A DNA stretch of 64,000 nucleotides from Octopus vulgaris (Eukaryota). The DNA lies in contig OX597820.1 in the NCBI GenBank assembly GCA_951406725.2, forward strand, positions 15,500,001-15,564,000. Direction: 5' to 3'. Below the pieces are notes generated by a model that was not told the origin of the DNA, did no database searches, and saw only the letters and a list, made by a program, of their open reading frames with translations. A program made the translations under genes and the position numbers. Shown piece by piece: positions 32,734-34,829 of this stretch; the stretch's first letter is position 1, and the number at the start of each line of letters is the position of its first letter.

Positions 32734-33674
32734 TGGAATTACTTTCTAAGGCTAGCAAGTATTTTAACAGTCATTGACAACCCAGCTTTTATGAGTTGAG
32801 TGTTAATTCCTACCTTATGGAGACTATGTGTATGGCAATGCAAGCACTTTCTTCTTAATTAGTCTCTTTGTTAGTCAAAAATTAGGCATCCCTAACACAG
32901 GGGATCAAGATAACTAGGAGAGGCGAGGGCAACATATCTTCTAGGGGAGTGCAAATGGAACCAAATGTTAATTTGATGTCTGACAGATGAGATGCAGTGG
33001 GAGTGGTGACAAGATGAATGCAATGGGTTGAGTTTAGGAGTGGGGAATAAATTAAGCAAGTTCAGAGAAATAGATTACCGAAATAAAGAGAGGTAAGCAT
33101 TCAAGTCTGTCAATGTCATAGAAAAAAATTTTTTACTACAAAAATTACTTCAAAAGGAAAACATTAAATTGAAATTAAAAAAAAAAAGAATTAAATTATT
33201 ACGGAATTACCTACATGATTCTGGAAACTGACTTAACTCTTTAGTTTGTCTAATAAATGTTTCAATAAATCACCCTGGCCACAAAATAGGGAAAATTTTT
33301 ATTTTAAAACTAAATAGGTGCAGGAATGGCTGTGTGGTAAGTAGCTTGCTTACTAACCACATGGTTCCGGGTTCATTCCCACTGCGTGGCACCTTGGGCA
33401 AGTGTCTTCTACTATAGCTTCGGGTCGACCAAAGCTTTGTGAGTGGATTTGGTAGACGGAAACTAAAAAACAAGCCCGTCATATATATGTATACATATAT
33501 ATATATATATATATATATATATATATATATATATATATATATATATATATATATATATATATATATATATATATATATATATATATATATATATAATTGC
33601 AGCGTGGAAGGTGTTTGTAAGCCATTTAAGAAACACACAAAAGCCGTTCGATTCACTTCAACATTTAAGTTTAA

Positions 33675-33724
33675 TTTGTCAAAATATTTTCGGCGCTAAA
33701 ATCCGCGACCTGTTCACTGACAAA
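33675..33724 (-). ncRNA. Hammerhead-like motif, G3-C8 variant (left arm)
   Basis: TTTGTCA-GTGAACA-GGTCGC-GGATTTTA-GCGCC-GAAA-ATAT-T-T-TGACAAA. Confidence 0.55.
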
Positions 33725-33755
33725 TCCGTGCTGCATCTCAGATGCAGCACGGACT

Positions 33756-33806
33756 TTTGTCAGTGAACAGGTCGTGGTCCTAAAGCGCCGAAAATATTTT
33801 GACAAA
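33756..33806 (+). ncRNA. Hammerhead-like motif, G3-C8 variant (right arm)
   Basis: TTTGTCA-GTGAACA-GGTCGT-GGTCCTAAA-GCGCC-GAAA-ATAT-T-T-TGACAAA; predicted cleavage between 33799 and 33800. Confidence 0.55.
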
Positions 33807-34829
33807 TTAAACTTAAATGTTGAAGTGAATCGAACAGCTTTTGTGTGTTTCTTAAATGGCTTACAAACACCTTCCACGCTGCAATTGTTTTCGTTTCAGC
33901 ACACGATCTCAGATCAAATCACTTGCTATGCGAGTACATCTCCCTATATATATATATGTGTGTGTGTGTGTGTGTGTGTGTGTGTGTACGTTTGCGTATC
34001 TGTGTTTGCCCCCCAACATCGCTTGACAACTGGTTGCTGGTGTGTTTACATCTCCATCACTTAGTGGTTCAGCAAAAGAGACCAATATAATAAGTAGTAG
34101 GCTTTCAAAGAATAAGTCCTGGGGTCGATTTTCTTGACTAAAGGTGGTGCCCCAGCATGGCCGCAGACAAATGACTGAAACAAGTAAAATGAGAGTATCT
34201 GTCCTAGCATAGAACTATATTGTCAAATGATAAAATATTTGCTGCTTTCTTTCTTTTCTTATTCTTTAACTATTTTCTCGTGTGTGGTTAAGACTCTCAT
34301 GTTGGAATCACCCGGGTTTAGATTAAATCTCATTGCACAGCACTTTCGGCAAATGTCTTCTGTTATAAATGATGATGATGATATAACCCCAGGCCAACCA
34401 ATGCATTGTGAATGAATTATTTAGACAGAAACTGAGTGGGGGCTCACTGTATACATGTATGTGTGTGTGAGTGCTTTTGAGTTTGTCACCCAGCCCCCAA
34501 CTCCACTTGACAACCAGTGTTGGTTTGTTTACATCCCTGTAACTTAGCAGTTCAGCAAAAGAGACCAATACAATAAGTACCAGACTATAAAAACATAACT
34601 ACAGTGTCAATTTGTTTGACTAAACCCTTCAAGGCAATAGTCCAATGACTGAAATATAAAGGAGGGGAGAAAAAAGTCTGTGTACATTACTCTAAAGTTC
34701 TGCTTTAGTTGTTATTACAAACCATCTCCCATTTATTGCTTTGGTGAGCAGAAATATACAAAGTGTAGGCAACCTTATTTGAATCAGTGACATCATGTTT
34801 CAATAGGAGTCGTCTATAATTATCTCCCC

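Follow-up and report, generated by a model that had tools for sequence, protein, structure and literature searches.

The palindromic insertion at positions 33595–33945 of the window, the 64,000-nucleotide stretch of Octopus vulgaris DNA analysed here, derives from an autonomous Penelope-like element (PLE), and each of its two inverted arms carries a minimal type-I hammerhead motif with G3–C8 in place of the canonical C3–G8 pair. We consider it rather probable that three propositions hold jointly: that the arms are head-to-head 5′-leader stubs of the autonomous PLE, that their G3–C8 motif is a putative weak ribozyme, and that the stubs formed by the mechanism proposed below. The features are as follows (coordinates, strand, description and, where given, basis).

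33481–33594, no strand: (TA)n target tract, also at 33946–33956, inside an abundant host interspersed repeat
33595–33738, minus: tail-less inverted arm, corresponding to the 5′ leader and ORF start of the PLE mRNA (alignment)
33675–33724, minus: minimal type-I hammerhead motif, G3–C8 core at 33711–33717, predicted cut between 33682 and 33681 (sequence, folding)
33739–33739, no strand: copy-specific head-to-head junction; both arms start at the putative capped 5′ end, (G)AGATG (alignment)
33740–33886, plus: tailed arm, of the same type as the 3′ end of the autonomous element's pseudo-LTR (alignment)
33756–33806, plus: minimal type-I hammerhead motif (sequence, folding)
Stems of the plus-strand motif: stem I 33756–62/33800–06; stem II 33771–75/33785–89 (two private changes)
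Core of the plus-strand motif: GTGAACA 33763–69, extra G 33770, GAAA 33790–93
Stem III of the plus-strand motif: palindromic AATATT 33793–98, followed by U17 at 33799
33856–33944, plus: the ATG and opening 29 codons of the PLE ORF (MAYKHLPRC...), which run on into the RT ORF at loci L127 and L128
33887–33945, plus: 59-bp tail on one arm only (a PLE signature; between two putative RT start sites)
12170–12487, plus: a further copy of the family, also an inverted pair, with 82% identity; its subfamily is of intermediate age and its centre is deleted
38230–38540, plus: decayed older-subfamily copy, 73% identical; the majority sequence of that subfamily is also G3–C8

An inverted-repeat search delimited 33595–33886 as a palindrome with 103-nt outer arms that are 99% complementary; compared with its own reverse complement, this segment is 93.6% identical, with 14 perfect pairs flanking C33739. 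Each arm reads TTTGTCA-GTGAACA-G-(stem II)-GAAA-ATAT-TT-TGACAAA, and loop II is not the same in the two arms. Alignment, folding and sequence thus bear out what the sequence-only reading had described, a near-perfect palindrome with a hammerhead-like motif on each strand and a stem II loop that differs between arms. That reading had also taken the element to be 292 bp long with a 1-nt centre; the palindrome stands, but the element extends to 351 bp, because the scored genomic copies also align across the 59-bp tail, which is found on one arm only and belongs to the element. Searching the genome of origin with the element gave 4,893 candidates, and all 40 that were scored span the tail too. The 1-nt centre is private to the present copy, since centres vary among 30 aligned copies.

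The surrounding host repeat is an abundant two-part repeat (halves at 33316–33480 and 33991–34200) whose internal (TA)n/(TG)n tract is the landing site; about 20 more copies lie in the window, uninterrupted at 31306–31668 and 56110–56470. The window also contains tandem repeats at 53007–53392 (period 187), 11537–11836 (period 107) and 10203–10326 (period 26).

The parent element was reached through a widely spaced inverted pair (L081) that encloses a GIY-YIG fragment, a search with which led to a young ORF-bearing family. In 29 of the 30 loci fetched, the family arm lies 905–1218 nt downstream of the end of the GIY-YIG ORF and on the same strand; in L127 and L128, arm and tail continue into the N-terminus of the PLE ORF, the ATG of which corresponds to window position 33856. 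From this continuity and linkage we conclude that the insertion is the pseudo-LTR end (5′ leader and first codons) of an autonomous PLE, an origin that is practically certain. The Penelope-type ancestry with inverted pseudo-LTRs put forward earlier is therefore upheld by both ORF linkage and insertion architecture, and copies joined to an RT/GIY-YIG ORF do exist.

The parental ORF is a 998-aa open stretch with RT motifs, a CX3CxxC linker and, at the C-terminus, a GIY-YIG with CCHH residues; GIY-YIG is its only Pfam match, and the RT was identified by motifs and homologue names. Such a linker (CX2-5CxxC) and a CCHH endonuclease are given as common to Neptune and Nematis in the available sections of PMC8557442, and by its linker the parent appears to be of Neptune or Nematis type; the RT tree, built with FastTree without named reference elements, contains references of neither clade. 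Homologues at 24–54% identity occur in many assemblies; the closest belongs to a sister family in the same genome, and an annotated Octopus vulgaris protein is almost identical to it. The family of the present insertion may already carry a name. Sequencing runs that contain its DNA bear three organism labels, and no RNA run is listed among them.

Long copies have a branch-point-like and acceptor-like CTAAC...TTTCTYAG immediately 5′ of the arm, no splice joint being listed among contigs. This signal coincides with the putative transcription start at L115 (5890–5922) and L081 (4060–4100); the 0.9-kb pLTR upstream of that start is rich in (ACAT)n, and in L211 a pyrimidine-rich ...TAG stands directly before stem I. 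A retained spliceosomal intron near the 5′ leader is common, not universal, in EN+ PLEs. A 781-aa GIY-YIG family found by PF01541 was rejected as the parent: it lacks the linker, has a U3–A8 motif of its own, and none of its 20 loci examined bears significant resemblance to the arm. This 781-aa family is itself a young PLE, the second seen here, of Penelope/Poseidon-like type and with many copies intact (L037–L049, e.g. G000:C16:20835500-20841000). An open frame of 68 codons spotted by eye in the arm proved to be the wrong frame.

For a census of insertions, the initial 30 motif matches along contig C1 were reduced to 27 by discarding 3 that were the partner arm of the same insertion. In this position-ordered sample, 18 insertions are inverted pairs, a single tail being present in every pair, and 9 stand alone; (TA)n adjoins 19 of the 27, and target duplications of 9–14 bp flank all 8 at non-TA sites. 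No head-to-tail tandem units of the non-LTR retrozyme kind were seen among these 27. The architecture fits a PLE, for which inverted pLTRs with an optional tail are known (PMC3846280 and PMC8557442, in the sections available). At palindrome centres, the first bases of the arm are often re-copied in short templated form (L009, L025, L026, L030, L054 and L055), a pattern typical of template jumps or of joining by microhomology. The copies do not support a separate palindromic family of non-autonomous elements of the kind that the sequence-only reading had envisaged: subfamily markers show that the arms have haplotypes in common with the autonomous element's pseudo-LTR, centres are copy-specific, and solo or unevenly truncated arms are common.

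The abundance of short copies admits another reading, which we regard as doubtful, namely that the 205-nt monomer spreads by itself as a non-autonomous element in the manner of a SINE, driven by an internal promoter of its own and moved in trans by the PLE protein; of the alternatives this is the nearest to the sequence-only reading. Motif matches number 4,708–6,805 against 136 first-look candidates for the ORF N-terminus, Logan depth is concentrated on the monomer, and Penelope of D. virilis has an internal promoter (PMC2377424, available text), all of which would suit such an element. None of the sampled long arms has loop type GTCTTAAA, and part of the short copies may accordingly come from a source of their own; the absence may also be a sampling effect, since these long arms were selected for youth. 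The youngest short and long copies, however, have marker haplotypes in common, and the copies examined show no tandem arrays, fixed centre or carried-over flanks. A SINE-like monomer would be compatible with the ribozyme claim.

The ends of the arms suggest how short copies of the autonomous PLE may form. Short arms have a common 5′ end at AGATG. The base before AGATG is C or T in 51 of 51 long arms and G in 39 of 55 short arms starting with AG, the arms of one hairpin not being independent. In LINE biology, reverse-transcribing a cap yields an untemplated G at a fixed 5′ end; a spliced exon or trans-splicing as the source of this G was rejected because no constant sequence precedes it. The 3′ ends of short arms fall at about +149 and +205 from the 5′ end. 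In the anole PLE, two internal RT start sites bound the tail, both DNA strands are cut and extended, and targets are AT-rich, according to the available part of PMC11167929.

We examined 97 arms from the first 100 matches to the post-cut sequence alone: the predicted cut is the start of none of them, 2 begin no more than 5 nt from it and 68 extend at least 55 nt upstream, indicating that the template RNAs were uncleaved. The anole PLE likewise uses uncleaved RNA as template, with no reads ending at the cut in the sections available of PMC11167929. When arm markers were compared in 51 pairs, 30 of them picked for likeness to the present copy, the arms of one insertion mostly agreed (38/43 to 44/44 at five single-base markers, 24/35 at loop II). 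Arms of mixed subfamily occur within one insertion in both directions (L062, L072, L074, L030 and L065), and in L284 and L289 one arm carries G8 and its partner C8; such mixed pairs could also come from later gene conversion between copies.

In the mechanism that we propose, transcription would start at AGATG, 16 nt before stem I, and yield a capped transcript. The PLE protein would nick AT-rich DNA on both strands, with reverse transcription beginning internally at two sites, one about 150 nt and the other about 205 nt from the cap; starting on the 5′ copy of those sites, it would run off at the cap and leave the extra G. Two short cDNAs, at times from two RNAs, would then be joined head to head by microhomology or fill-in, so that one arm would have the tail and the other lack it, the centre would vary and a duplication of 9–14 bp would result. 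Because the template RNA was uncleaved, cleavage would act off the insertion pathway, for instance by removing the cap and so limiting translation or mobility. The short copies are most likely run-off cDNAs of uncleaved, capped RNA, and we moderately favour this mechanism of stub formation as a whole.

A more speculative version, which we think improbable but worth stating, would make the young, high-copy G3–C8 lineage a long-running one, its swapped core having arisen within a cluster of sister families whose 3–8 pairs are C–G, U–A, U·G and G–C. Its thousands of short palindromes would be relics of a reaction in which two uncleaved capped RNAs, possibly held together by a hammerhead dimer through the palindromic stem III, are each reverse-transcribed (one nick, one internal start) and joined cap to cap. 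Self-priming on antisense templates has been proposed for PLE inverted junctions (PMC3846280, available text); cap-to-cap joining, if true, would explain the inverted repeat and tail of PLEs without such self-priming, and the PLE hammerhead would be an RNA dimerisation module.

The motif itself has all the features of a type-I hammerhead (U4, G5, A6, N7 and A9; G12, A13 and A14; A15.1–U16.1; H17; stems I and II) apart from the canonical identities C3 and G8, which are absent; G3 and C8 stand there in 6,805 exact matches. It further shows an extra base between 9 and 10.1, a G10.1–C11.1 pair, a palindromic mini stem III (15.2–16.2) and U17. An extra base at 9/10.1, G10.1–C11.1 and a palindromic 15.2–16.2 are hallmarks of PLE minimal hammerheads in the accessible part of PMC4209133, and the motif is very probably a hammerhead homologue with a naturally swapped 3–8 pair. 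A chance origin was dismissed on 5,534 exact genome matches to the motif 22-mer against none for the reversed control. Core and stems of a minimal type-I hammerhead with G3–C8 could be read on both arms, as the earlier reading had claimed; its predicted cut after 33799 also holds, since G12 at 33790 places N17 there on the plus strand.

The expectation that CTGANGA-type scans would miss the swapped core proved right for the published descriptor, which requires ^cuganga (PMC4209133, in the text available). An Rfam scan of the window returned no hammerhead match, a null that is uninformative since the canonical C3–G8 PLE relatives L206, L211 and L146 were missed as well; its mir-802 match is only the hairpin. 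The present copy has private changes in stem II, the family-typical form being GTCGC/GCGAC after an unpaired extra G, and folding against shuffles gave z = 0.01 for the plus arm, −2.4 for the minus arm and −3.0 for a family-typical copy. RNA 33750–33810, the segment earlier singled out for a cleavage assay, is therefore that of a damaged copy, its stem II altered and its fold no better than shuffles. Unconstrained co-folding of two monomers exchanged stem I and part of stem II and left stem III unpaired, an outcome that speaks neither for nor against the active dimer. The competition between ribozyme and hairpin suggested for read-through RNA is thermodynamically trivial, the full hairpin dominating the fold, and shows no sign of function.

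The swapped pair is not confined to young copies. In an older subfamily (30 copies, seeded with window 38320–38540), the majority motif is GTGTCA GTGACCA G GTCGC..GCGAC GAA AATT T TGACAC: G3–C8 is kept, whereas N7 has changed from A to C, a stem I pair from T–A to G–C and stem III from AATATT to AATT with the palindrome retained, and loop II is replaced. G3–C8 thus persists over about 21–27% divergence. Conservation of the core above its flanks was seen here (11/11 identical positions against 103/131 downstream), a difference that is weak alone (0.79^11, about 0.07).

Related families carry other states at the same place. C3–G8 was found in the L299–L303 family, which has near-identical stems, in L146, a sister with 1,312 residues, and in the metagenome loci L206 and L211; U3–A8 was found in L171, L208 and L209 and in the distant 781-aa family, L209 also having U at position 5. 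Another old family has T at position 3 in 29 of 30 copies, a query-biased sample, giving U3·G8. This is a related PLE family (L237–L266, e.g. G000:C1:139196802-139197012) with the same stems I and II and a majority U3·G8 wobble; the literature searched gave no report of U3·G8 as a natural state. The young sister (L146/L230, G000:C17:6330000-6337000), whose 1,312-residue frame has an Asn-rich insert, combines C3–G8 with C at position 9, and metagenome locus L208 also has C9, with U3–A8. A hammerhead motif is present in 4 of the 9 metagenome loci, none being visible in the DNA of the other 5.

Across related families the 3–8 states are C–G, U–A, U·G and G–C, all pairable, with a minor G·G variant as the exception. 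Positions 3 and 8 are paired in 9 of 9 families (permutation p 0.008, relatedness ignored), a count that started from 13 representatives, 2 being dropped as of the same lineage and neither the 781-aa family nor the G3·G8 variant being included. The 3–8 covariation that the sequence-only reading proposed to test is found at the level of families.

Whether the motif still cuts is a matter of prediction, and we think it probably does cleave RNA; in its swapped form it is likely to be a weak, dimer- or protein-dependent putative ribozyme. U17 is expected to slow hammerhead cleavage, and so is the swapped pair. According to the available sections of PMC11167929, a PLE hammerhead that itself needs protein to cut regains part of its cleavage in the engineered C3G/G8C double mutant. 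With the flanks fixed, genome matches comprise 6,805 with G3–C8, 434 with G3 and non-C8, 219 with C8 and non-G3, and 65 differing at both. Among the first 100 listed of the 434, 34 have G8 (about 150 in all, 2% of 6,805), and among the first 100 listed of the 219, 12 have C3 (about 26). This excess of G3·G8 over the reciprocal transversion indicates that a G3·G8 source was copied, and its spread that an unpaired core did not prevent copying. The variant (e.g. L267, L273, L274, L283, L284, L289 and L131) is either a source that has broken or a step on the way to the swap.

These figures are also the ground for an unlikely alternative of the same PLE origin, in which the G3–C8 motif is dead or nearly so, the fold (stems I and II and the palindromic stem III) is kept for dimerisation or protein binding, and 3–8 drifts among tolerated bases. 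The G3·G8 source variant, the lack of copies starting at the cut and the C at position 9 of the sister family would agree with it, as would the anole PLE, for which the accessible text of PMC11167929 describes hammerhead catalysis as dispensable for insertion in vitro and reads without cut ends. A dead motif sits poorly, however, with a pairable majority state at 3–8 in every family and with the retention of G3–C8 across subfamilies; the mismatch variant is confined to the intermediate-age subfamily and remained minor, and the engineered swap is partly active (PMC11167929, available part).

The near-perfect inverted repeat and TA-rich targets might suggest a DNA transposon of MITE or fold-back type, its terminal inverted repeats being long and its hammerhead-like word there by chance, but this reading has next to no probability and is refuted by continuity with the RT and GIY-YIG ORF; 18 of 18 pairs have a one-sided tail, solo and truncated arms occur, duplications vary between 9 and 14 bp, and the 27 insertions yielded no symmetric terminal inverted repeats with a fixed-length duplication, which also answers the earlier concern that members might have DNA-transposon structure.

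PLE minimal hammerheads, inverted pLTRs and tails are already known, and the present family defines no new class of element. The study by Lunse and colleagues is reportedly the largest survey of PLE hammerheads. Our literature search for a natural G3–C8 hammerhead gave engineered variants only, although Lunse et al. (RNA Biol 14:1499) may already contain examples, and for an Octopus Penelope hammerhead it returned nothing specific; natural 3–8 variation is reported as C–G and U–A in the available parts of PMC3088659 and PMC4209133. A family-level natural G3–C8 beside near-identical-stem C3–G8 and U3·G8 relatives gives phylogenetic support for the 3–8 pair. Descriptors of the cuganga/uuganaa kind give too low a count of PLE hammerheads, a point of relevance to elements described as having none. 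The stubs form a countable record of PLE insertion, with a fixed 5′ end and extra G, two 3′ ends, mixed-haplotype arms and no start at the cut, and this record bears on the origin of inverted pLTRs and on the purpose of the PLE hammerhead.

The closest known systems are compared here through the available sections of the cited papers. With the minimal hammerheads of PLEs (Cervera and de la Pena 2014, PMC4209133), the present motif has in common its type-I topology, the extra nucleotide at 9/10.1, G10.1–C11.1, a palindromic 15.2–loop 3–16.2, its place in the pLTR just before the ORF, and thousands of dispersed truncated copies with opposite-strand pairs; PMC4209133 reports C3–G8 and a U3–A8 variant, whereas the present family has G3–C8 with U at N17. 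Neptune/Nematis EN+ PLEs (Arkhipova 2006 via Craig et al. 2021, PMC8557442) resemble the parent in a single RT ORF, the linker (here CQSNCAVC), a C-terminal GIY-YIG and CCHH, and in an inverted 5′-truncated copy, one-sided tail and (TA)n bias, but the present element has DKS for DKG and a tail of 59 bp against 30–40.

Animal non-LTR retrozymes (bioRxiv 10.64898/2026.07.22.740005; PMC7229834) are likewise short, non-coding, hammerhead-bearing PLE derivatives; they are by definition head-to-tail tandem repeats, whereas the present copies are solo or head-to-head. PAc, a Poseidon element of Anolis carolinensis (Frangieh et al. 2024, PMC11167929), likewise has its hammerhead where pLTR and ORF meet and a tail bounded by two internal RT start sites; its targets are AT-rich and its template RNA is uncleaved. 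It differs in belonging to the Penelope/Poseidon clade and in its C3–G8 core, G3–C8 being described in the available text of that report solely as an engineered mutant with partial activity. The ORF of PAc begins within the ribozyme, whereas the ATG of the present element lies 56 nt after the predicted cut.
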